Below, one piece after another: positions 89 to 36,627 of a DNA stretch of 37,569 nt. The stretch's first letter is position 1; each line of letters starts with the position of its first letter. The stretch is from a virus. Lineage: Duplodnaviria > Caudoviricetes. The translations under genes were made by a program, and so were the position numbers. The stretch is from the IMG/VR virus record IMGVR_UViG_3300033565_000011, positions 1-37,569 of that record; one strand, given 5' to 3'. The notes beneath the pieces were generated by a model. It had not been told where the DNA came from, did no database searches, and was given only the letters and a program-made list of their open reading frames with translations.

Positions 89-100
89 GTGTGAATTACC
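89..100 (-). repeat. Terminal 12-nt repeat, putative cosN cohesive end (5'-GGTAATTCACAC-3'), copy 1
   Basis: GTGTGAATTACC begins immediately after the adapter and is identical to 37558-37569. Confidence 0.8.
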
Positions 101-1566: not shown

Positions 1567-4074
1567 TTAGAAGCCGGCATATTCACCACCTGTTTGCGTT
1601 CTCGTTGCCGGTACGCCGGCAGTTGCTTCGACCATCAATGGCGGCCGGTACCAGAAACGGGTCATGCCGTTTCGCTTTTCGATCTTCTGGCAGCCGAGGT
1701 TGCGCAGGCTGTTACCGACACGGATCTGAATGTCCCGCGTCAGGTGCGCCGCATCAATGCCCAGGGCGTCCTTTGCTGCCGTCGCCAGGGCGAAATCAGC
1801 CACCTGCGAATACACCCAGTCATGCAGCGCATCGAGCAGGCCTTCCTGTTGCTGGCGACGGAACTGCTCAGGGTCGAAGAGCTTCTTCTGCTCGTCCCAC
1901 TCCGGCCAGTAGCGCTTGCCAGCCAGGTAATAGGCCAGCGCCTCAGCGAACAACTGCTCGCGTGCCGCAACCAGCCCATCGACATCCAGAATGCCCACGG
2001 TGACCGGCCAGAAACGCCGGCCACCGGTTGGGTCTTTGTTCCACTCCCACTCGTTCGTCGTGCCCGTGAAAACCAGCTGACGCGGCATCTTTACGAAGGA
2101 CGTGGCAAACGGTATGCGGAATTCATCAAACCGTCTGGAAAGGAAGGCTTTTTGCCGCTTCTCGTCAGAACGGGCCATTGCACCCATTTCCGCGATCTCA
2201 AGCAGCCATTTGCCCTGCAGCGCCATCATTGAATCCTTGTTACTCAGATCCAATTCAACGTCACTGAACCAGCGGTCCCCGACCAGCGCACAGAGGATGG
2301 TCGACTTCTTCTTCCCCTGCTCGCCTTCCAGGATCAAGCTGTAATCGAACTTGCACCCAGGGTGAAGGGCACGGGCGACCATGCCCATCAGGAACCAGCC
2401 ACCAGCCAGCCGCAGGTACTCCTTCTGATCCGGCGAAGTGGGTTCGCAGCCGACATAGCGTTCCAGCCAGCTGCCGATCCGCTTCTCGCCATCCCATGCC
2501 GGCAAGGCATGCAGCCAGTCCTGCACCGGGTTAAATCGATGGTTGCGCGCCACGGCATCGACGGCCTGGGCAATGATCTCCTTACCCGGTGCGAACTTGT
2601 ATCGGCGTGTCACCCAGATGCCCGTGTGCGTCGTGTCCAGATCGCTCCAGTCACCCAGTTCGCCATTGACATAGGGTGGCTCCTGCAGCTTGACGATGCG
2701 CTGCGCGTGCTCGTCAAAGCCCAGCGTGCCATGCCACGACTCGTCATGCACCAGCACGTCATACACGTTCGCGACACAGCGCTCAATCTCGCCCTTCTGC
2801 GTCCTGTGCAACCGATAAATCCAGCTATCACCCGCCCCACTCGCGCCAGCGTCTTTAGCGGTATAAATGGTTTCCGGCGGTGTTTCCGGGCGCTCAGGCT
2901 CCCACAGGACCACATTGTCCCGCAGCCAGCCAAGGCTCGTTTCCTCGTTGAACTGCCCAATCTCGCCGGCAGCGCACATGTCTGCCACATCCCAGCCATC
3001 CGGCAACGTGCCCGGCTGGGGAATCTTCACCAGCCAGACCTTGCAGCCCTGGCCATGCAGGCGCTCGGCTATCTTCACCGCGGCCTTCATGCCCGGCTGC
3101 TTGAACTCATCCAGGAAGGGCTTCGACAACGGATCGATGCCCCGCTCCTTCTCATCCTTCGACAGCTTCTCGCGCTTGCTGTCGGCATCCGGCCAGACGA
3201 TGACCTTGCGGTCCACCAGCGGCGACCAGTCGGCCTTGTGCTCGGCATTCGTGCCGCCACACCAGGTCACCACCGCCAGCTCGGGGAAGAGCAGATGCGC
3301 CACGTCGGCACACTTCTCGCCCTCGACCACCAGTACTGTCGCCTCCGGCTTGGCTGCCAGACGATCAAGGCCATACAGCGCGCGCGGCTCGCCGAAGTGC
3401 ATCCAGCGCCACTGCGATTCGCCGGTCTTCGCATGTGTTGCCCAGCAAACCGGTGTGATTTCCTTTCCGCCGTCGCTGGTCCTGAAGCGGAAGACATAGC
3501 CCAGGGTGGCACCATCCGCATCGCGGTAATGCCACAGCGCCTCGGGATGGCCCCGGCGCACATGCGCGACGGGTGGAGGCGGCGCATCAGACGGCGCAAC
3601 ACGCACAGGCACCCATTCCGTGACTGGCTTCTTCGCCGATGCCTCGGCACCGCCGGCTGCAGTCTCAGCCGACGGGGAGGACTTCTCTGTGGGGGCAGAG
3701 CGAGGCGGCACCGGATCCTGACTGCGTCCGCCTCTCGGGGGGGGTAACTGAATGCCCAGCTGGCTGGCCACATCACGCACGCCGGCCAGCTGGTCACCAC
3801 CATGGAACAGATACGCACAGAGCGAGACCAGATCGCCGCCCTTGTCATCAGACGCGAAGTCGCCCCATTTGCCGTTGGCCATATTGACCGAGAACGAGCC
3901 CTCGTTATTGTCGCTGCGCGTCGGGTTGACTGACTTCCATTCGAAGCCGGATTTATGGCCCAACGGCAGCCAGGACTTGATCAGCGAGTCCGCACTGACC
4001 AGCGCGGCATCAGCAATCGCCTTGAAGTCGATATCGTCAGCCGGCCCCCGCCGGCCATGTCCCCCGTTTGCCAT
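1567..4074 (-). CDS. Primase-helicase fusion (TOPRIM + VirE/VapE-family P-loop ATPase)
   Basis: TOPRIM motifs VVEGEKCAD and WPDAD; Walker A LEGEQGKKKS, LEIAEM, GTTN and TGGRRFWPV are typical of VapE. Confidence 0.9.
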   Translation of the reverse strand: MANGGHGRRGPADDIDFKAIADAALVSADSLIKSWLPLGHKSGFEWKSVNPTRSDNNEGSFSVNMANGKWGDFASDDKGGDLVSLCAYLFHGGDQLAGVRDVASQLGIQLPPPRGGRSQDPVPPRSAPTEKSSPSAETAAGGAEASAKKPVTEWVPVRVAPSDAPPPPVAHVRRGHPEALWHYRDADGATLGYVFRFRTSDGGKEITPVCWATHAKTGESQWRWMHFGEPRALYGLDRLAAKPEATVLVVEGEKCADVAHLLFPELAVVTWCGGTNAEHKADWSPLVDRKVIVWPDADSKREKLSKDEKERGIDPLSKPFLDEFKQPGMKAAVKIAERLHGQGCKVWLVKIPQPGTLPDGWDVADMCAAGEIGQFNEETSLGWLRDNVVLWEPERPETPPETIYTAKDAGASGAGDSWIYRLHRTQKGEIERCVANVYDVLVHDESWHGTLGFDEHAQRIVKLQEPPYVNGELGDWSDLDTTHTGIWVTRRYKFAPGKEIIAQAVDAVARNHRFNPVQDWLHALPAWDGEKRIGSWLERYVGCEPTSPDQKEYLRLAGGWFLMGMVARALHPGCKFDYSLILEGEQGKKKSTILCALVGDRWFSDVELDLSNKDSMMALQGKWLLEIAEMGAMARSDEKRQKAFLSRRFDEFRIPFATSFVKMPRQLVFTGTTNEWEWNKDPTGGRRFWPVTVGILDVDGLVAAREQLFAEALAYYLAGKRYWPEWDEQKKLFDPEQFRRQQQEGLLDALHDWVYSQVADFALATAAKDALGIDAAHLTRDIQIRVGNSLRNLGCQKIEKRNGMTRFWYRPPLMVEATAGVPATRTQTGGEYAGF

Positions 4075-4562
4075 CAGCCCGCCACCTTCCTAACGGCCGG
4101 CAGGGGGGGGGGAAGCTCGCGCACCATGGTCTCCAGCTCGGCAAGCAAGTGCATGACCGACGCCACGGTGCGATGGCCGCGCAATTTCAGCGAATTAAAT
4201 TCATCGGGTTCAATGACGCCATCGGCCCGCGCCTCAGTAAACTCCTTCGACAGCTCACCCATCTGCTGAATGATGCCCAGGTACGCCTGAAGCACATCAT
4301 CCTCAGCCGGCGCGCCGGCCGGTATGGCAAGGAAAACGCCGCCGAAATGCTCACACACCGCCTCGGCATAAACCGTCGTTTTTGCATAGTCCGCCAGGGC
4401 CAGCGCCTCGCGGGCCGTCACCTCGTAATGCGGCATCGCATCTGAAAACTTGTTGTGCAGGATGCCGGGCGAGCGGCCAATACGCTTGGCAGCGGCGGCA
4501 ATGCCGCCATCTGTCGTCAGCAGCACAGCGTGCAGCGCGTCAATCGGATCACGATGAGACAT
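4074..4562 (-). CDS. Phage regulatory CII-family protein
   Basis: GGIAAAAKRIGRSPGILHNKF HTH and C-terminal ADGVIEPDE; GAGGGG RBS before ATG 4562; located between cro and the replication gene. Confidence 0.75.
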   Translation of the reverse strand: MSHRDPIDALHAVLLTTDGGIAAAAKRIGRSPGILHNKFSDAMPHYEVTAREALALADYAKTTVYAEAVCEHFGGVFLAIPAGAPAEDDVLQAYLGIIQQMGELSKEFTEARADGVIEPDEFNSLKLRGHRTVASVMHLLAELETMVRELPPPLPAVRKVAG

Positions 4563-4619: not shown

Positions 4620-4645
4620 AAAAAGCCCAGGCCCGAAGGCCCGGG
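4620..4645 (-). terminator. Hairpin terminator (tR1-like) upstream of CII
   Basis: Minus strand CCCGGGCC-TTCG-GGCCTGGG followed by CTTTT. Confidence 0.5.
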
Positions 4646-4741
4646 AAAACGGCGGAGACAACCGCACGCAGAGAGAAAGAGGCCAGCCCATGACCGATAG
4701 AATGACGATGCCACTCACCACCCAAACGGAAAGGACCAGCC

Positions 4742-5062
4742 GTGAAACAGGAAGACACGCTCAAATCCCTGAAAGATTCGCTTTCGAAACAAACGGCCAT
4801 CATTGGCGCGATGGCCGAACAACAGGACATCCTGTCGGCACAGCTCGAAGGCATGAAGAAAGCGATACACGTCATGGCTTCATTCCTGCCAATGACAGAA
4901 GCCGATGTTTCAACCGCGTGGGAAATGGCTGCTGGCCAGGTAACGACCGAAATGGAACCGGCCGAGCCGACGACCTACATGCAGACAATCGAGCTCGAAG
5001 CGATTCGATCTTTGTTATCGGGCGCAGGAAAGGTCTGGCGGGATCGATCCCGGCGGCCATAA
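4742..5062 (+). CDS. Hypothetical helical protein, antisense to the pR operon
   Basis: GTG start with AAGGA RBS; coiled-coil-like, protein-like composition. Confidence 0.5.
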   Translation: MKQEDTLKSLKDSLSKQTAIIGAMAEQQDILSAQLEGMKKAIHVMASFLPMTEADVSTAWEMAAGQVTTEMEPAEPTTYMQTIELEAIRSLLSGAGKVWRDRSRRP

Positions 5063-5183
5063 GGGCCTCATTCTTTTTCCGCATGGCGATGTACAGCCGG
5101 CTGGAAGCAAAGTTGATTTTTACGAGCTTCTCAAAGCGCGCCCAGACTTCCGGTGGAACATCGGGAATATCGCGATCATCCAT
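4872..5183 (-). CDS. Truncated paralog of the Mor/C-like activator (dimerisation segment, no HTH)
   Basis: ATG 1 nt after the cro stop with GAGG RBS; DVPPEVWARFEKLVKINFASSRLYIA is 21/26 identical to the 34146-34397 product. Confidence 0.7.
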   Translation of the reverse strand: MDDRDIPDVPPEVWARFEKLVKINFASSRLYIAMRKKNEALMAAGIDPARPFLRPITKIESLRARLSACRSSARPVPFRSLPGQQPFPTRLKHRLLSLAGMKP

Positions 5184-5184
5184 C

Positions 5185-5451
5185 TCAAGCCGCCTCGCGT
5201 TTCGAATTTGGGGTGTTTTCGGGGTTGACCGTGGCAGTGCCGCGCAGGTACTCCCAGTCCACGTCGGGCCTGATCTCTTCGCAGGGAACGGCGCCGCGCG
5301 ATGCGCGATCAATCGCTATTGCAATATCAGCCCCGATCTTTTTCCCCGCAGAAACGGCGTTTCGCAAATAGTTGATCGTCGTCCCAGACTCTTTCTCAAA
5401 AGCCTCACGGGCGGCTGGAGACAACGAATTGATGTAATTTCTGAGATCCAT
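5185..5451 (-). CDS. cro: Cro/YdaS-like HTH regulator
   Basis: GTTINYLRN HTH and GAVPCEEIRPDVDW YdaS-type signature; divergent from the repressor. Confidence 0.85.
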   Translation of the reverse strand: MDLRNYINSLSPAAREAFEKESGTTINYLRNAVSAGKKIGADIAIAIDRASRGAVPCEEIRPDVDWEYLRGTATVNPENTPNSKREAA

Positions 5452-5519: not shown

Positions 5520-5933
5520 ATGAAGAATGCCGAGGTGGACAAAACTTTCGAAGAACGTCGCCTAGCGCTAAAAACCCTCACTGGCCGATTCGGCTATGGC
5601 GGCATCGCGCACGTCGCTAAAGAGATTGGCGTCGACGCCAGTTATCTGTCGCGGTGCCTCTACGAAGTCGGCAAGCCCGGCAAGAAGAACATCGGGGACG
5701 AAGTATCGATAAAGCTCGACGACAAGTTTCCGGGATGGCGAAATGGCACGTTGACCGCAAACTCACCCGACAATCTGATTTATGGTGAATTTGAGCAGGC
5801 CGCGCGGGAAACGGTCGATATCCTGAAGCGCCTCAGCCTACCGCGGCAACAAGAAGTATTGCGGCACGCACGACTGCTGCTACTTGACCAACAACAAGAA
5901 GATCAAAACTCTATCCAGCGCGCCGGCCTGTAA
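5520..5933 (+). CDS. cI: CI-like repressor (HTH, short, no S24 peptidase domain)
   Basis: GIAHVAKEIGVDASYLSRCL...KNIG HTH; divergent from cro across the operators. Confidence 0.8.
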   Translation: MKNAEVDKTFEERRLALKTLTGRFGYGGIAHVAKEIGVDASYLSRCLYEVGKPGKKNIGDEVSIKLDDKFPGWRNGTLTANSPDNLIYGEFEQAARETVDILKRLSLPRQQEVLRHARLLLLDQQQEDQNSIQRAGL

Positions 5934-8768: not shown

Positions 8769-10883
8769 ATGACCGAACAACCCCGCTACCGCACGCACAT
8801 TGGCCTGAGCGAGATCAAACCATCGCCGACCAACCCGCGAAAACACTTCAATGAAGCCGAGCTCGCCGAGCTAGCCGCCAGCATCAAGAAACACGGCGTC
8901 ATCACGCCGATCATGATCCGCCTAATCAACGATCTTGAGACGCCGCATTTATATGAAATTGTCGCCGGCGAGCGTCGCTGGCGTGCTGCCACGCTGGCCG
9001 GTTTGACCACCATCCCCGCCATCGTTCGCGATGACCTGAGCCCCGCGGCCATTATTGAGATCCAGCTCATCGAGAATTTGCAGCGACAGGACCTGCATCC
9101 GCTCGAGGAGGCCGAAGGCTATGGCCGCATGATGCGCGAGCACGGCTACACCGCCGACACGCTGGCCGAGAAGATCGGCAAGTCCCGGAGTTACATTTTC
9201 GGGCGCATGAAGCTGCTCGACCTCTCCGACGATGCGCGCCGGCTGTTCTATGCCGGCCTGCTCAACCCGTCGACCGCCCTGCTCATCGCCCGCATCCCGA
9301 CGCACAAGCTCCAGGCCAAGGCCGTCGAGGACATTACCGAGAAGGACTACCACGGCGACAGCAAGTCCGTGCGCGCTGCCGCCCGGCACATCCAGTCGCG
9401 CTACATGACCAACCTCAACAACGCGCCCTTCCCGACGGACGATGGCGAACTGATCGCCACCGCCGGGCCGTGCGGCGCCTGCCCCAAGCGCACCGGCAAT
9501 GCGCCGGAGCTGTTTGACGACGTGGCGGATTCAAACGTCTGCACCGACCCCGACTGCTACATCCTCAAGAAGCAGGCCAACGCCGAGCGCATCGCCCGGG
9601 AAGCTGGACCAGATGTGAAGGTAGTGACCGGGAACGAAGCAGAGAAGATGCTATCGATCTACGGCAACGAGACAAAGACGCATGCGCCGCTCGATAGTAC
9701 CTGTCCCGATGACCCGAAGAACCGCACCTATCGCGAGATCATCGGCGACGATGCAGCTGCCATCATCCTGGTCGAAAACCGGCATAAAGGCGGCCTCGTT
9801 CCCGTCATCGCCAAGAAGATCGTCACCGAAAAGCTAAAGTCTGAAGGCGTCGTCACACGCGCCATGGCCACACGCGATGACAACAAGAAGATCAAAGCCC
9901 AGGTAACACTGGAAAACACTTTTCGGCAGGCCCTATTCAAAACCGTACGGGAAGCAGCCCAGTCTGCCTCCACAAAAATTCCCGTGCTCGAGGCCATGGT
10001 CGCTGTCATTACGCGCCGCTTCCTCATCGATGCTGGTCAGAGCCGCGTCGAGAATGTTTCCGGTATCTGGGGTGCTATTGGCCATCATTCTTTCGACCGC
10101 GCCGACGCCTTCCGCAAGGGCGTCACCCAGTATTCCACAGACGAGCAGCTGCGCATCTGCCTTGATCTCGCCATGTTGGCCGAATCCCATACCGACGAGC
10201 ACAACCTGAAACGCAAGCCGGAAGGCTTGCTGACCATGGCCAGTGCGCTTGATATCGACGCTGATGCTCTGCTCAAGGAGGCCAAAGAATCACTCAAACC
10301 AGCCCCGAAACCTGCCAAAAAACTGAAAAAAACGCCACCCGCACCCTCTGAAGACCACTTACCCCCTACCCAAGCTGCGCCGGCGGCGGGGATAGACCGC
10401 GCGAAAAGCGAGGTGGGCGCGACCGAAGCTGCGCCGGCCGGCGAGGAAACCCCGCCCGAAAAGGCAACGGCGGAAGAGCAGAAGAGTGCAGCTAGCGCTG
10501 CGGTGGAAGAACCATCCGGAGGTGAGCGGCCATTCGACGCAGGAGATGTTGTCCACGTGATTGGCGGACCACTGGCGGGGTCTGGAAAGGGAGGTGAGAT
10601 TGAATGCGTTTACACCGATGACCGGGCGTATCCATACGTCGTGAAAATCGACGGTCAAAACAAATATTTTGCCGAAGACGAGCTCAAGCTGGTCGCAAAG
10701 GCAGAAGCAATCGAGACGGACGAAAAAACACCCGTGGCCACGCGCCGGCCCGTTCAATACCGCCACCCCAATAACCACGAACTGGAATGGACCGGCCGCG
10801 GCCGAAAGCCGAAATGGGTTGAAGCCTACCTGGCCAACGGCGGCACGATGGATAGCCTCAAGACGGAAGGAGTTGCAGCATGA
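8769..10883 (+). CDS. ParB/Spo0J-family protein with C-terminal H-NS-type DNA-binding domain
   Basis: IVAGERRWRA and ENLQRQDLHPLEEA ParB motifs, HTH, Cys cluster; C-terminal YRHP...WTGRGRKPKW is the H-NS signature. Confidence 0.9.
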   Translation: MTEQPRYRTHIGLSEIKPSPTNPRKHFNEAELAELAASIKKHGVITPIMIRLINDLETPHLYEIVAGERRWRAATLAGLTTIPAIVRDDLSPAAIIEIQLIENLQRQDLHPLEEAEGYGRMMREHGYTADTLAEKIGKSRSYIFGRMKLLDLSDDARRLFYAGLLNPSTALLIARIPTHKLQAKAVEDITEKDYHGDSKSVRAAARHIQSRYMTNLNNAPFPTDDGELIATAGPCGACPKRTGNAPELFDDVADSNVCTDPDCYILKKQANAERIAREAGPDVKVVTGNEAEKMLSIYGNETKTHAPLDSTCPDDPKNRTYREIIGDDAAAIILVENRHKGGLVPVIAKKIVTEKLKSEGVVTRAMATRDDNKKIKAQVTLENTFRQALFKTVREAAQSASTKIPVLEAMVAVITRRFLIDAGQSRVENVSGIWGAIGHHSFDRADAFRKGVTQYSTDEQLRICLDLAMLAESHTDEHNLKRKPEGLLTMASALDIDADALLKEAKESLKPAPKPAKKLKKTPPAPSEDHLPPTQAAPAAGIDRAKSEVGATEAAPAGEETPPEKATAEEQKSAASAAVEEPSGGERPFDAGDVVHVIGGPLAGSGKGGEIECVYTDDRAYPYVVKIDGQNKYFAEDELKLVAKAEAIETDEKTPVATRRPVQYRHPNNHELEWTGRGRKPKWVEAYLANGGTMDSLKTEGVAA

Positions 10884-13865: not shown

Positions 13866-14858
13866 ATGCCACGCACTATGGGACGCCGCCGCCAGACCAA
13901 CCTTGACCTGCCACCCCGCATGCACATGAAGGGCGACACGTTCTATCACGTATCGACCGTCCTGCCACGCAAATGGACCAAGCTTAGCAAAGACCTAAAC
14001 GAAGCGCGGCGCAAGTGGGCAGAGCTTGAATCAGACGACAGCGCATCGAGCCTGGCCACGCTGATCGATGAATGGATGCTGACCGACGCCTATAAAGACT
14101 TGTCCGACAACACCAAAAAACAATACAGCAGCGTCGCCAAGCAACTGAAAAGCGTTTTCGCCGACTTTAATTCCGTCGCCGACATCAAGCCTCAGCACAT
14201 TGCCCAGTGGCAAGATGATCACAAGTCCAAGGTCAACGCCAACACCGGGAAATCAATCCTGTCCAACGTGCTGGCCATGGCGATCCGTCGCGGCATCATC
14301 GACCGAAACCCGGCACGGGAAGTCGACAACCTGACCGTTCAGCGGCGCAAACGCTACATCACGGACGATGAATACATAGCGATTCGGGAAAAAGCACACC
14401 CAGTCCTGCGGGCGGCGATGGACATCAGCTATGTGACCGGCGCCCGCATCGGCGACATTCTCGACATCCGGCTGTCGCACATTTCAACCGATGGCCTACT
14501 CGTTCGCCAGGGCAAGACCAACAAGCTGCAGCTTTTCAAGCGCAATTCCGCCCTCGATCTGGCCATCGACAACGCCAAGGCCATCAAGCGCCCGGTGCGC
14601 GGCCTGTTCCTGCTCTGCACCATGCGCGGCCAGCAGTATGACTATCAACAGTTGAATCTTTGGTGGGTGAAGGCCCGAGAAGAATCAGGCGTTGAGGATG
14701 TCCATTTTCACGACATTCGCGGCAAGTCCGCCACCGACGCCAAGCGCGCCGGGATGGACTACCAGGCGCTGCTCGGGCACACCACGAAGGCCATGTCGGA
14801 CAGCTATATCAAGCTAGAAGATGCTCAAATTGTCGAGCCGATGGCGAGGGTGATTTGA
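13866..14858 (+). CDS. int: Tyrosine integrase
   Basis: Catalytic residues in TGARIGD, QGKT, HFHDIR, LLGH and SY; N-terminal arm-binding-like domain; alternative start at 13878. Confidence 0.93.
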   Translation: MPRTMGRRRQTNLDLPPRMHMKGDTFYHVSTVLPRKWTKLSKDLNEARRKWAELESDDSASSLATLIDEWMLTDAYKDLSDNTKKQYSSVAKQLKSVFADFNSVADIKPQHIAQWQDDHKSKVNANTGKSILSNVLAMAIRRGIIDRNPAREVDNLTVQRRKRYITDDEYIAIREKAHPVLRAAMDISYVTGARIGDILDIRLSHISTDGLLVRQGKTNKLQLFKRNSALDLAIDNAKAIKRPVRGLFLLCTMRGQQYDYQQLNLWWVKAREESGVEDVHFHDIRGKSATDAKRAGMDYQALLGHTTKAMSDSYIKLEDAQIVEPMARVI

Positions 14859-26285: not shown

Positions 26286-26329
26286 ATGATGGATTTCAGG
26301 GGCCGTACAAACTAGGCAAAAAAGTTTCG
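26286..26329 (-). promoter_or_regulatory. Late promoter 3 (21-bp box, 17 bp, CATCAT, 7 bp, ATG)
   Basis: Box CGAAACTTTTTTGCCTAGTTT at 26329-26309 is identical to two other intergenic copies. Confidence 0.75.
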
Positions 26330-26360
26330 CGGGTGGATACGTTTGCACAACACCGACGGA

Positions 26361-27275
26361 TTACAGCGTCAGCGTTTTCCATTCGCCACGGCTGAGCCCG
26401 CGGTCGTCGTTGTACATGTCGGTCATGGCTTGATGCTTGTGACCGAGCAGGGTCATGGTGTTGATCCCTTGCGCCCGGAAGAGCCGTTCGGACAGCGAGC
26501 GACATTCGTGCAACGACGGCGGATTCGGGCCAAGGTTGCCCAGGGCGCCCTCCCGAGCGGTTTCAAACATTGCGGAGAGCGATGCCTCGCCCAGCTGCTT
26601 GCCGTTGTGCTTGCGCAACAGGTAGCCATCACCAGGCACGTAATAGCTGCGGCAGTCTTCAATGACTTGCTCGAGGGTCAGATCGATGGCGTCGAGTTTA
26701 AGGCCCAGCGGGATCGCCAGGCGGGCGCCGGTCTTGGCCTGCTCGATATGTAGAAAGCCTTCCCATACATCATCGAAGCGCATCTTGACCAGATCGCTGC
26801 GCCGCTGGCCGGTGATGAGCGCGAGGGCCAACATCCTGGACACCCAGGGCGTCGTGTTGGTAATGGCATAGCCCAGGATCGCCCACCACTGCTCGAGCGT
26901 CAGGCGCTTGCGCTGCACATGAACAACAGGGACTTTGACAGACTGGGCAGGGTTGCGATCAATCCAGCCATAGTTCATGGCCTCGTTGAAGCAATCGCGC
27001 GACTCAATCAGTATCCGCTTGGCCGCATGCGGATGCTGTGCATAGATGCCGAGCACCATGCTGGCCACTTCGTGGGGCTTGATCGCTGAGATTATGCGAT
27101 CGCCAAGGCCGTCAAGGATATGGACGAGGCTGCTTTTCCGGTTGGCCCTGGTCTTGTCGCTGATCGGGCGAGCATCGATGACCTTTCGATAAGTGTCAGC
27201 CCACTCGTTCAGGGTCCGATACTTGGGAAAAACCCGGCCCATGGTGGATGCCAGGAGCCGGGTTGATAGGGTCAT
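26361..27275 (-). CDS. Second tyrosine recombinase, lambda-Int-like core without an obvious arm-binding domain
   Basis: TGQRRSD, QAKTG, PPSLHECRSLSERLF, LLGH and MYNDDRG parallel the lambda Int C-terminus; 304 aa. Confidence 0.9.
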   Translation of the reverse strand: MTLSTRLLASTMGRVFPKYRTLNEWADTYRKVIDARPISDKTRANRKSSLVHILDGLGDRIISAIKPHEVASMVLGIYAQHPHAAKRILIESRDCFNEAMNYGWIDRNPAQSVKVPVVHVQRKRLTLEQWWAILGYAITNTTPWVSRMLALALITGQRRSDLVKMRFDDVWEGFLHIEQAKTGARLAIPLGLKLDAIDLTLEQVIEDCRSYYVPGDGYLLRKHNGKQLGEASLSAMFETAREGALGNLGPNPPSLHECRSLSERLFRAQGINTMTLLGHKHQAMTDMYNDDRGLSRGEWKTLTL

Positions 27276-27321: not shown

Positions 27322-27867
27322 TTAGATTACGCGGAACCTGAACGTGCTGGATACAGGCGCAACAGTCGGGCCTACACATAGTTTGTTCTGGAATAGGATC
27401 AATCCAACTCCAACCTCAAGCGTCTGAACGCCAGTCGCCCACACTCGCTTGTATGCCGATCCTTGCGCCATGCCGTCGCGCCAAGTCCAAGTAATTCCGT
27501 TCGTTTCATCGACCCACTCAACCTCTCGCGCCACAAATGGCATGTCGAAATAAAGCGGTAACTCTTCCATCTTCGTGACAGTCACGGCCTCGGAAGCAGT
27601 TACCCGCAAGTTGTCCCACAATCGAAGGCTGGTATTAGTCGTGATTGTTCGCAGCACATTGATAAATTTCTGCGTTGCTCCGACAACATGCACAACATCC
27701 GGCAAGGCAAATCCCGTTGTATTTGCAACAGCAGTAATCGTATCGCCTGCCGCCGTTGCCGTTCCTGCTTGAGATGTCATTGCTGTAGCGTCAGTGCTTG
27801 CGCTACCCTGAACGGAAACAATCGTGTCGCCAGAGAAAATGGCGTTGTAATTAGTAGTCAGTGCCAT
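27322..27867 (-). CDS. Hypothetical beta-rich protein (possible virion accessory)
   Basis: GAGG RBS; Thr/Val-rich; lower GC than the core genes. Confidence 0.7.
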   Translation of the reverse strand: MALTTNYNAIFSGDTIVSVQGSASTDATAMTSQAGTATAAGDTITAVANTTGFALPDVVHVVGATQKFINVLRTITTNTSLRLWDNLRVTASEAVTVTKMEELPLYFDMPFVAREVEWVDETNGITWTWRDGMAQGSAYKRVWATGVQTLEVGVGLILFQNKLCVGPTVAPVSSTFRFRVI

Positions 27868-27875
27868 TTTTCACC

Positions 27876-29423
27876 TCAAGAAGAAAGAGCGGCTTTAACA
27901 AGCGACGCTTGCAGGTCAATACCGGCTTGATAGGCATGTACGCCATCATCGAGCGCGACATTCCAATTAGCTCGCCAATCAATTACGGTGCATACACCGC
28001 TTGTCCCGAGCGCCAGTGTGAATGCGTAAATATCCGCGTGAAGCTGGTTGTAAGCAGCGGTGGCGGAGTTCAGAAGCAGATTGTGGAAGTCCGTTGTCAC
28101 ATAGACTTTTGCTCCGTATCGACGGCAAATTTCGATTGATCTCATCAGCCTTGCCTGAACTTGAGAAAGCAGAAACTCCGTACCACTTGTCGAGCTTCCG
28201 TATTCAGAAAAATCATTAAATGACACATTTGGCAGAATTACGTCCGTCGGTCTGAATCCTTGGGCAAACATTTGCTCAAGCTGCCCGAAGAAATTGGCGT
28301 AAGTCGTCGTAGAGAAACCGAGATTGACCGGGATAACAGGGGCGGCAGCGGTACTCAGTTCGCCACAAGCCTGAATAATCCAGTTGTTTAGACTGTAACT
28401 TTGATTGCCCCCGTTTTCCGTGATCGAGTCACCGCAAGCGGCAACCGACCGGACTGCTACTTTATATCTATATTCAAACGCGATTGTGCATGGGGACCAC
28501 TGGAAATTCGCTTCAGTTGGTGCTGCCGGAACATTTGTTAGAGTCCCTATGGCATCAGCAGAATGGCCCATGACAAACTGCCGCCTATACCAAGGGAACG
28601 AAGATGCGTTTTTCCAAAGAGGATTTTTGTCAGAAGTAAAAGCCTGTGTCTCACCAGCTACCGCAGCCTTCTTCGCTCGCCATAGCATGTAATGTTTTCC
28701 ATCGGATGCCGGAACGGTCTTTATATCAATCCAATCCGATTTTATGCAGCTTGTGACCGGGTAATATCCGGTAAGCGTGGATTGATTCCTGAAATTAGAC
28801 GCAGGCCGCAAACGGCCTGATTTACTAGCACGGCCATCATTAAACTGCCCACCCCACTGAGCGCGGCGCCATCCATATTGATTTGCAGGGAGCGTTTTAT
28901 CTGCGGATGACTCAGCCATCAGGTTGTACTGAGTGCCGCCGACCTGCGGGTAAAACGCATTGGCAACGCTATCGTTTAGCAACTGATCAGTTGGCGCGAC
29001 GATAACTTCCCATCCAGACGACTCGTTAATGTATTCCTTGGAGAAAACCCACACGCGAACAGCACAAATTTCAGACTCAAGCGTTTCTTTACCGACCTTA
29101 CAACCAATATTATTGTTTGTTCCGCCAGATGAAAACGTCGAACCCATCCCCCACATTCTGTGCATTGCAACACTTGTTTTTTGTGCGGCGCCGCCAAGCA
29201 CCATCGGCAGCCCCGTGGCCGGGTCTAAAATTTCACTCTTCCCGGTGACATTCTTAGTTGCCAGCACAGGGACGGCGTCATCACCGATGTCAGGTAAGGT
29301 GGTGTAGACGGCACGGTTGAGTGACACGTGGCGCGCTTCAGCGTCTGGGGTCAGGGTCAGGACGGAACCGACTGCCTGATGTACGCCGGCGAGCTGGATT
29401 CCTTCAAGCAGTCTGATGGTCAT
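27876..29423 (-). CDS. SGNH/GDSL hydrolase-domain protein, possibly virion-associated
   Basis: Blocks CGDSIT, NLGFS, SFND and DGVH; AAGGA RBS; higher-GC N-terminus and lower-GC remainder. Confidence 0.8.
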   Translation of the reverse strand: MTIRLLEGIQLAGVHQAVGSVLTLTPDAEARHVSLNRAVYTTLPDIGDDAVPVLATKNVTGKSEILDPATGLPMVLGGAAQKTSVAMHRMWGMGSTFSSGGTNNNIGCKVGKETLESEICAVRVWVFSKEYINESSGWEVIVAPTDQLLNDSVANAFYPQVGGTQYNLMAESSADKTLPANQYGWRRAQWGGQFNDGRASKSGRLRPASNFRNQSTLTGYYPVTSCIKSDWIDIKTVPASDGKHYMLWRAKKAAVAGETQAFTSDKNPLWKNASSFPWYRRQFVMGHSADAIGTLTNVPAAPTEANFQWSPCTIAFEYRYKVAVRSVAACGDSITENGGNQSYSLNNWIIQACGELSTAAAPVIPVNLGFSTTTYANFFGQLEQMFAQGFRPTDVILPNVSFNDFSEYGSSTSGTEFLLSQVQARLMRSIEICRRYGAKVYVTTDFHNLLLNSATAAYNQLHADIYAFTLALGTSGVCTVIDWRANWNVALDDGVHAYQAGIDLQASLVKAALSS

Positions 29424-31898: not shown

Positions 31899-31942
31899 AG
31901 TCTCGTTTTGGCGGGTTTCTAAAACTAGGCAAAAAAGTTTCG
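31899..31942 (-). promoter_or_regulatory. Late promoter 2 (21-bp box, 17 bp, GAGACT, 7 bp, ATG)
   Basis: Identical box at 31942-31922 upstream of the capsid gene. Confidence 0.75.
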
Positions 31943-31943
31943 T

Positions 31944-34098: not shown

Positions 34099-34142
34099 AG
34101 TGTGGGCGCGCGGATGGGGTCAAACTAGGCAAAAAAGTTTCG
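34099..34142 (-). promoter_or_regulatory. Late promoter 1 (21-bp box, 17 bp, CACACT, 6 bp, ATG)
   Basis: Identical box at 34142-34122, 3 bp after the stop of the Mor-like gene. Confidence 0.75.
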
Positions 34143-34145
34143 CCA

Positions 34146-34397
34146 CTACCTCAGCTTTTTGAGGCGACGGGCGTACTGCACCGTGACGCCGAGCATCTGC
34201 GATATCTTCTCGGTGTTTTCTTCCTGGCTGGCCTCGAGCTGGGCAATGAGCCGGCCCTTTTTCTGACTGGCGATGTAGAGCCGGCTGGCGCCGAAGTTGA
34301 CGCGCACCAGCTGCTCGAAGCGGGCCCAGACTTCCGGCGGCACGTCATCCATGTTGCGCTTGGCCAGCTCGAGGACTTCCCGCAGATCATCAGCCAC
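34146..34397 (-). CDS. Mor/C-family-like late transcription activator
   Basis: NFGASRLYIA resembles the Mor-family FGGxxxYIP linker; C-terminal HTH TEKISQMLGVTVQYARRLKK. Confidence 0.7.
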   Translation of the reverse strand: MADDLREVLELAKRNMDDVPPEVWARFEQLVRVNFGASRLYIASQKKGRLIAQLEASQEENTEKISQMLGVTVQYARRLKKLR

Positions 34398-36627
34398 GGC
34401 GTGCGCCCTTTCGGTTGGCCATCATGGCGGCCCAGGCTTGTTTGGCACGGGCGGCAAGCATGATGTCGGACGCTTCGGAGGATTCTGATTTTGGGCTTTT
34501 TTCCGGGTCGACCGCAGCAGGGTCTTGTTCAGACGTTTGCACTTGCCCGGCTTCCTCTTCCTGGTCAGGATCATCCGGCAGGTTGATGATCTTGACGATC
34601 GGATCATCCTGCACGATCAGCGTGCCCTGGCGAAGTCGCAGCTCATCGAGATCCCATTGCCCCGGCCGGCGCAAGTGCAGGCGCAGGTGACGGCTGAGGT
34701 AAAGGGCGTAGACCGTGCAGTCGAGTGCCTCATTGCGGCGGTCGGTGCGGGCTTTCCAGGCGCGGCGGCGCGGGTTGGTGCGGCTCGGGATCTTGATCTC
34801 GGAGAGCATCTGCTCATAGAAGTCATCGCGCACGCCTTCATACCAGTGCATGCGGCCGGAACCATTCCCGGCCAGACGGATGCGCCCGCCCTCTTGCGCC
34901 CAGCCGAGGATCAGATCCTTGGCCTTGGCGGTACCGACCATATTGACCTGCAGGCCGAACTTGCTGGCCTTGGTGGCTTTGCGGTTGGGGTCGACCACTC
35001 TCGGCGGCGTCCAGATTTCGATACGCCCCTCGGCATCGGCGGCGCCCTTGAGGGCGAGCACCGGGCGGGCCTGCCGGTTGTGTTTACGCACGAAGGCATA
35101 GGCGGCATCGCTAGTCTGGCCGTCCGAGCAGTCGATGCCGCAGCCGGCAATGCGCAGGTCGACGCCGGTCTGGGTGGCGACGGTCTTGTCGAGCATCTGC
35201 TCGAGCTCGATCCATGCGCCCTGGTGCGCGACGACGGTCTGGCCGTAGACCTCGCCCCAGTAGGCCAGCCACATTTCCTCGCCACGACCGACGACCCAAC
35301 AGGTGATGGCGAGGCGATCATGCTGCACGTCGACCGTCAGCAGCGGCACCAGGGCGCCGACCGGGACGGACCACTCGGCATACTTCTCGGCGCGCTTGCG
35401 CAGTTCCTCTTCCTCGGGAAGCTCGCCGGAGTACTCCCAGCACATGCCGCGCGTCGAGTTCCAGAAGGCGACCATCTCGGTCGGGTCGCCATGATCCATG
35501 AGGTGCTGGGCACGGAGGAACTTTTCGGCGAGGACTGGGACCCGGCTGCCGTCGAAAACACTCTGCAGCTCGTTGCAATAGAAGCCGGGATCGGGTGCGT
35601 CGGCGGTCGGTTCCCAGCCGTAGTACGGAGCGACGCGGGCAGCGGCGCGGATGTTGGCAATGCGCTCATCGTCGGACCAGATACCGCCACAGTGCGGGCA
35701 GGCATAGAAGGCATCTTCATGCCGGGCGCGGCCGTAGACCTCACGCGAGGGGTAGCGGGCATCGATGTCCGGGGCGTTAAGTTCCTCGGTCGTCAGGTTC
35801 ATGCCAGGGATGACGACGTGATCCCACTCGACTTCGTGACGCTCGCCGCAGTCGTGGCAGGTCACCATGAAGCGGCGCTGGTCGGTGGTCTTCATCTCCT
35901 TTTCGATTTCGGAGGCGCCCTTGGCCGTGGGCGAGCCGCCGATCAGCTCGAAGGAATTGCGGATTGTCTTGCCGCGTTCCCGCAGCAGCGCGATCGCATT
36001 GCCCTGCCCCTTGACGTCCTTGTTGGTGTCGTCCGGTTCCTCAACGATGCGGACCTTGGCCGAGGTGGATTTCACATCGGACGGCGAGTTCGACGCGACG
36101 AACTTGATCAGCCCGCCCGGGTAATGCTTGCGCGTGGCGCTGTTGCCATCGGAGCGCGACTTCAGGCGGATGCGCTTGGCCAGCTGCGCCGTGGCACGGA
36201 CCATCGGTGAAAACTTCTCGGCATCGAAATCCTTGGCCGATTTTTCGCGCGGGAACATGACGACCTGGACGCAAGGCTCCCAATGGACGTGATAGCCAAG
36301 CACGTTGCACACGACCCCGGCGGTGTAGCCCAGCTGCGCCGACTTCTGCACGATCACCCGCCGATTCTTGGCCGGGTTGCACTCAGCCAGGATGCCCCGC
36401 AGCGCGGGCGTGTTTTCCAGATCATAGGCGCCAGCGTAGTCGTTGGTTTCCTCCCTGGACAACACCCGGTAAGTCTCAGCCCACTCGATAATCGACAACG
36501 GCTTCGGCGGCTCGAGCTCAGCAAACACCCGGGCCAACATGGCATCCAAAGCAGCCGACGCCCAGCCGTGATCACCAGGAATATCCTGGAGCGCGATCTG
36601 ACGGTAGGTGACGGCTGGGGTGTTCAT
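34390..36627 (-). CDS. terL: Terminase large subunit, lambda gpA family
   Basis: KSAQLGYT Walker A, VEEPD, GSPT, CxxC pairs, VDVQ and RNEALDC. Confidence 0.95.
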   Translation of the reverse strand: MNTPAVTYRQIALQDIPGDHGWASAALDAMLARVFAELEPPKPLSIIEWAETYRVLSREETNDYAGAYDLENTPALRGILAECNPAKNRRVIVQKSAQLGYTAGVVCNVLGYHVHWEPCVQVVMFPREKSAKDFDAEKFSPMVRATAQLAKRIRLKSRSDGNSATRKHYPGGLIKFVASNSPSDVKSTSAKVRIVEEPDDTNKDVKGQGNAIALLRERGKTIRNSFELIGGSPTAKGASEIEKEMKTTDQRRFMVTCHDCGERHEVEWDHVVIPGMNLTTEELNAPDIDARYPSREVYGRARHEDAFYACPHCGGIWSDDERIANIRAAARVAPYYGWEPTADAPDPGFYCNELQSVFDGSRVPVLAEKFLRAQHLMDHGDPTEMVAFWNSTRGMCWEYSGELPEEEELRKRAEKYAEWSVPVGALVPLLTVDVQHDRLAITCWVVGRGEEMWLAYWGEVYGQTVVAHQGAWIELEQMLDKTVATQTGVDLRIAGCGIDCSDGQTSDAAYAFVRKHNRQARPVLALKGAADAEGRIEIWTPPRVVDPNRKATKASKFGLQVNMVGTAKAKDLILGWAQEGGRIRLAGNGSGRMHWYEGVRDDFYEQMLSEIKIPSRTNPRRRAWKARTDRRNEALDCTVYALYLSRHLRLHLRRPGQWDLDELRLRQGTLIVQDDPIVKIINLPDDPDQEEEAGQVQTSEQDPAAVDPEKSPKSESSEASDIMLAARAKQAWAAMMANRKGARRG

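Follow-up and report, generated by a model that had tools for sequence, protein, structure and literature searches.

The activators Mor and C of bacteriophage Mu (PF08765; 1rr7, 9l0x, 9l0y) are two paralogs that work at different stages, both of them intact and arranged in a cascade. In the Mor dimer each monomer is described as contributing its helices 1 and 2 and one strand of an antiparallel pair, and the invariant glycine of its linker as a pivot for the moving helix-turn-helix (HTH) (PMC2582627). In the account given of the Mu C/Mor tetramer (10.1101/2025.05.02.651988), DNA is gripped by the HTH as well as by the strands, and in C the strands also touch sigma region 4. TrlR of Agrobacterium is a truncated paralog of TraR that forms inactive heterodimers (PMC13043044). 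An engineered CI-CTD of phage 186, a regulator fragment without DNA binding, is reported to sequester the full protein (PMC7708051).

The stretch of DNA analysed here, referred to as the window, is the whole of a 37,569-nucleotide IMG/VR record and represents a 37.6-kb temperate phage with a completeness of 95%. Within the same replicon it has a predicted late activator gene and, behind cro, a paralog of that activator without the DNA-binding domain. The late gene resembles Mu Mor/C in having two helices, a G-x-x-x-x-Y-I strand and a C-terminal HTH, and in that several late operons have a dyad box ~20 nt ahead of a -10-like hexamer. It differs in being only 83 aa, in its place after terL of a lambda-like non-transposable phage and in having itself no match to PF08765. 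The early paralog, unlike either Mu protein, is without the HTH and most of helix 1.

In phage lambda, late regulator Q is restrained early on by the antisense role of paQ. The latter is a CII-activated promoter (PMC7708051), and as a device restraining a late regulator early it is comparable to what is proposed below. However, paQ lies within Q and works there in cis as an antisense promoter, whereas the window has a distant, protein-coding partial copy for which RNA pairing is not conserved in relatives. The mechanism proposed for the early copy is the same as that of TrlR, yet TrlR belongs to the LuxR family, acts in plasmid conjugation, keeps the whole N-domain and has been tested in the laboratory; the window copy is of Mor/C descent, would act in phage late control and has half a dimer domain. 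The 186 CI-CTD was engineered and is directed at a repressor, whereas the window has a natural gene whose proposed target is a late activator. Neither a natural truncated Mor/C paralog nor such a late-gene circuit was found in a full-text literature search at abstract level of mostly non-subscription sources. The arrangement is real and recurrent, and apparently undescribed.

The predicted late activator and its partial early copy

On the minus strand the gene order is cro (5185..5451; YdaS-type repressor-like, phrog_35, PF15943), the early ORF (4872..5183, 103 aa), a 186/CP76-type cII (4074..4562; PF06892 E 4e-18, phrog_101), a primase/VapE helicase and small genes. Past the contig ends it continues with terS, terL (gpA type, 34390..36627), the 83-aa gene (34146..34397, overlapping the terL stop) and the head-tail, portal and capsid genes. 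A divergent cI-like regulator lies at 5520..5933 on the plus strand, identified by phrog_5736 (E 4e-4) and position. An intrinsic-terminator-like hairpin (4626..4645, minus strand) separates the early ORF from cII, and a comparable hairpin and T-run are present in the related locus L007. The topology listed by IMG/VR is linear. Window positions 89–100 are a repeat of its terminal 12 nt, relatives have cII, primase, terS, terL and activator in unbroken order, and the map is likely to be circular. Because of this repeat and the contiguous order in relatives, the early copy and the activator are placed ~8 kb from one another along the direction of transcription, where the initial annotation gave ~29 kb.

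The Mor/C kinship that had been claimed for the late gene is supported by profile and fold. An 80-sequence family profile matches Mu Mor (1rr7) nearly end to end, over profile positions 6–82 (E 1.2e-4). PF08765 is matched by 7 of the 80 wider family members (best 1.1e-8), with no match for the late protein and its 19 closest relatives. Residues G36 and Y41 are invariant in 20/20 sequences and align to GGQVYIP of Mor. The model of the late protein (pLDDT 88.6) has helix 1, helix 2, a strand linker and a three-helix HTH, and in a structure comparison with 1000 chains Mor, C and Mor-TAC rank 1–3, although at middling Z values of 5.6, 5.2 and 4.6. All 83 residues are aligned in these three rows (rmsd 2.4 for C), against Z 3.4 over 44 in the next row. 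In a first model, for which 20 sequences were used, helix 2 and the strand were merged; Foldseek gave no significant match with either model, and tblastn of the late protein against 50,697 annotated phages gave none. We infer from these sequence features that the late gene encodes the transcription activator of the late operons. A Mor/C-family gene directly after terL, either classical or compact, is common in lambda-like Betaproteobacterial phages (L020, L066, L068, L071, L075, L046 and L047).

Three minus-strand copies of a 22-nt box with the dyad AAACT-N9-AGTTT are present in the window where 0 are expected by chance, each ahead of a late operon. These predicted late-promoter boxes precede the head-tail/portal genes (34121..34143), the protease/capsid gene (31921..31943) and the connector/tail genes (26308..26330), and are kept ahead of the same genes in 8 related loci. 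An exact scan for the box returned one contig, which is unrelated. Mu C is described as binding such dyads at late promoters (PMC2582627).

The early ORF begins at an ATG (5183) placed 1 nt past the cro stop, as had been annotated, with GAGG 9 nt upstream. The block in common with the late activator (5073..5162, minus strand) comprises Mor helix 2, the beta-strand (YIA) and a basic patch. Recounting gave the same values as the initial annotation: 21/26 residues are identical between 5085–5162 and 34269–34346, and 9 of these 21 use synonymous codons. At the nucleotide level 61/78 positions are identical, and the differences fall 4/2/11 at codon positions 1/2/3. It is the only long direct repeat in the window (tblastn within the window, E 3e-14 to 5e-16). 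The similarity stops near late residue 48, which confirms that it ends upstream of the predicted HTH helices (62–69 and 73–82). The early ATG aligns near late residue 11, which leaves out the greater part of helix 1 (residues 3–15), and the profile match is restricted to positions 11–54. Helix 2 and the strand linker are therefore present while the complete dimer domain of helix 1 plus helix 2 is not, and to call this the dimerisation domain would be an overstatement. Of 8 early blocks, 6 retain the invariant glycine of the linker; the window copy and the homologue P0021 have alanine there. No C-terminal HTH was found, nor a match to any HTH family or to any Pfam, PHROG or NCBIfam family, and an atlas search gave nothing usable. 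Lacking two of their defining features, the HTH and the complete dimer domain, the early ORF does not belong to the Mor/C activators, and an intact early 'middle activator' as in Mu is ruled out by the absent HTH.

Selection at the protein level, which had been suggested from the synonymous codons, is supported by three results for the shared block. By the NG86 method dN is 0.119 and dS 1.02 (dN/dS 0.12). When 8 late genes serve as outgroups, 13 of the 17 differences are assigned to the early branch; 8 of these are at third positions (binomial p 0.035). Neutral simulation attains at least 21/26 identity with p 0.015. The evidence that the early protein is under selection is nevertheless only moderate, because similarity was the basis for choosing the block and because dS among the late genes is compressed by their high GC3. 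Across 8 early blocks the helix-2 F and L/I are kept and conservation tracks that of the late family (Spearman 0.73); the W and Y anchored these blocks, and their invariance is therefore circular. Translation of the early ORF by coupling to cro seems likely, given the coupled ATG and the dN/dS. The ATG as specific proof was rejected, since such a codon is generic, being found at the cro stop in 6/7 fragment-free junctions.

Over its final 63 codons (residues ~41–103) the early ORF lies antisense to an ORF on the plus strand (4742..5062), which the initial annotation had left out of its account; the shared block is outside this overlap. The antisense ORF encodes a helical protein of 106 aa with an N-terminal coiled-coil pattern and its own SD-like motif, and has homologues in L007 and L027. 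A weak IraP/anti-RssB-like feature match (0.87), without support from Pfam, is a lead only. The frames conflict in the overlap, the antisense wobble position being sense position 2. Wobble divergence inside versus outside the overlap is 32/61 versus 30/37 for the window and L007 (p 0.005) and 23/63 versus 25/40 for L009 and L016 (p 0.015), with no significant difference for the window and L027 (p 0.53) or L007 and L027 (p 0.058). There are hints that this region is dual-coding, because two of the four pairs diverge less at wobble positions within the overlap than outside it. In L027 an internal stop interrupts the antisense ORF, and the sense frame stays open. The open tail frame was rejected as proof of coding, the null p being 0.01–0.69 given the antisense protein (0.11 for the window).

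Small antisense helical ORFs occupy the cro-cII slot in many relatives; they share a coiled-coil start, and their identity is low. Examples are L007 2601–2897, L009 2637–2948, L016 9506–9820, L042 4186–4440 and 4588–4896, and L013 9500–9778. Viral scans with the antisense ORF and with P0053 found zero relatives.

Copies in related phages

Loci with this cII number 55 and form 22 clusters, window included, two of them with short upstream sequence. For the cluster count the locus with the most upstream DNA was scanned from each, other loci being covered separately. Upstream of cII an N-terminal block is found in 3 of the 22 clusters (the window, the L007/A. caeni group and G320), a C-terminal piece in another 3 (L027, 2.6e-4; L016 and L009, both weak, iE 0.037 and 0.07) and no piece in 16. 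HTH-less N-terminal copies lie between cro and cII in two further Rhodocyclaceae prophage lineages. The one-off decaying duplication that the initial annotation had considered is at odds with this recurrence of post-cro copies in other phages.

The ORF in the same slot of L007 and L041 is homologous to that of the window (37% over 93 columns). Helix 1 is retained in the G320 copy, and all other N-block copies are without most of it. In L027 (1057–1457) cro is directly followed by an HTH-only piece of the late activator, and this piece is coupled to an ORF with homology to the tail of the window ORF. Further forms, for which a post-cro position is assumed, are a short N-block protein (P0066) and proteins with an N-block, an insert and a recognition helix (P0021, P0053, P0084, P0097 and the degenerate P0106), the latter five having a proline-rich stretch in place of the first HTH helix. 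The whole cassette has been exchanged in one relative, 4718–5209 being replaced by 439 other letters.

Among the relatives with named hosts, 4 of the 5 genome loci are from Rhodocyclaceae and one of them is in Azonexus caeni; a prophage of A. caeni KACC11481 has the same layout. Order-wide and genus-wide searches matched 1/401 and 1/129 genomes, in both cases G001 only. The family-wide search matched 48/401 genomes, and of the 15 regions taken from the stronger matches only that of G320 has an early copy. Where a compact activator is in view, a piece is present in 4/4 cII clusters, against 1/5 for classical Mor, a contrast to be read with the profile's better detection of compact-type fragments. 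L043 has a different cII, a compact activator and no piece. The early piece is dispensable, because it is absent from 16 of the 22 cII clusters and from L043 despite its compact activator.

A search of related phages for a post-cro ORF co-evolving with the activator had been proposed. Recurrence after cro was found, but co-evolution with the own activator is seen in just one of the three lineages that have both genes. None of 57 late blocks is closer to the early block of the window than that of its own activator (3 tie, own included). The early blocks of L007 and G320 have 12/26 identities to their own activators, and 17 and 22 late blocks, respectively, are closer. A tree of 48 blocks and 31 columns is for the most part poorly resolved, with the early copies scattered (6 changes versus a shuffled mean of 7.6). 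A single origin of the early copies is compatible with it (AU p 0.079), so that their 'repeated capture' is unproven.

Proposed function and alternatives

The reading that we favour, at a little below an even chance, is that the post-cro gene encodes a translated, TrlR-like anti-activator that would probably delay late transcription. Through its coupling to cro, the early copy would come second among the proteins made from the lytic transcript, before the terminator-like hairpin, and the activator would be the last gene, ~8 kb further along. Helix 2 and the YIA strand of the early copy could replace the partner subunit in the helix bundle and the antiparallel strand pair. Because Mu Mor and C activate as tetramers that need both HTH and strands, one early-copy subunit would be enough to spoil the activator tetramer and keep the activator off the three predicted late promoters. 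The early copy would be in excess, because the terminator-like hairpin follows it and a search for a consensus promoter between primase and activator found none. The outcome would be a threshold or delay on the late genes. Counted against the anti-activator are the loss of most of helix 1, which is half of the four-helix bundle per monomer, the early blocks of L007 and G320, which do not match their own activators best, the lack of any piece in most relatives and the C-terminal pieces found instead in three lineages. Should both proteins be encoded on a single transcript, this reading does not account for how the activator eventually wins. A broader version, which we consider less likely than not, is that broken activator copies (dimer-half only, HTH only, or with the HTH split by an overprinted insert) have repeatedly been put behind cro in a group of lambda-like Rhodocyclaceae phages as anti-activators, forming a protein-decoy late-gene timer that does the job of lambda paQ and is dual-coded with an antisense gene.

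The main alternative is that the early ORF is a relic. In that view the activator was duplicated into the early region long ago, and within a hypervariable cro-cII cassette the duplicate gained an insert, came to be overlapped by the antisense gene, was fragmented and was in part renewed by recombination; its pieces would still be translated through cro coupling and would no longer regulate the activator. This is rather unlikely on the whole, and has much of the variation between relatives in its favour. N-only, C-only and N+insert+C forms are all found, the opposite, C-terminal piece in some relatives fits the fragmentation of an old duplicate, the cassette can be replaced wholesale (4718–5209) and the ATG after cro is generic. 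The early blocks of L007 and G320 are on long branches and unlike their own activators, and the C piece of L016 is of the compact type, although this phage has a distant classical Mor for an activator. A relic does not, however, readily account for the dN/dS of 0.12 outside the antisense overlap, with synonymous changes mostly on the early branch, nor for the helix-2 core residues retained in copies merely 10–15/26 identical to one another or the whole layout retained in the diverged P0084 and P0097.

The early protein may also be functional with another target: it would jam Mor/C activators encoded by rival phages or by resident prophages, or bind DNA or RNA polymerase alone via the strand, with the overlapped tail as a new domain. 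In two of three lineages the block is nearer to the activators of other phages than to its own, the tail seems constrained by the two lower wobble values (p 0.005 and p 0.015), and the strand contacts of Mu C with DNA and sigma region 4 offer a precedent. The other two wobble comparisons (p 0.53 and p 0.058) and the unexceptional open tail frame of the window (null p 0.11) weaken this case, and the best match within the window genome is its own activator; we regard another target as improbable. A real antisense gene implies leftward transcription as far as the block, and a CII-driven establishment transcript across the region could pair in trans with the activator mRNA, as paQ acts on Q. The duplex predicted for the window is strong, at -169 kcal/mol versus -100 +/- 7 for shuffles. 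It is at shuffle level in L007 (-117 versus -112) and G320 (-116 versus -116), 11 of the 17 differences are at third positions, the longest exact match is 14 nt, and the promoter scan gave one consensus site, the chance expectation, with no leftward promoter mapped. Antisense RNA is thus a very improbable explanation.

How Mor/C-type late activators are timed outside Mu is of interest because the phages described here are without a Mor-to-C cascade. If the anti-activator is real, a natural decoy made out of the activator would constitute a new circuit in phages, for timing or for the lysis-lysogeny decision, and a small sequence-defined inhibitor would be available for probing Mor/C tetramer assembly. 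The A. caeni KACC11481 prophage makes the idea testable in a named strain. Even an inert early copy would be a clear case of duplication, fragmentation and sense/antisense overlap of a regulator within one slot.

Other features of the genome

Positions 1–88 of the window presumably represent sequencing-adapter read-through left on the contig, and the ORF at 55–219 is an artefact of this adapter-like sequence. Just 3' of the primase gene, at 1260–1561, many 9-nt units in both orientations form nested inverted repeats. These are likely to be an iteron replication origin, and the ORFs called across them are probably spurious. The integrase is at 13866–14858. We take the gene at 26361–27275 (minus strand), from its motif pattern, to be a second tyrosine-recombinase-like gene; it lies within the late region, between the capsid-side genes and the third late box. 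After the capsid region, ORFs of 515 aa and 181 aa (27322–29423, minus strand) are unusual in size and place for a head module. The early-left operon includes a 704-aa ORF (8769–10883, plus strand), which from its motifs we assume to resemble ParB at its start and H-NS at its C-terminal end.
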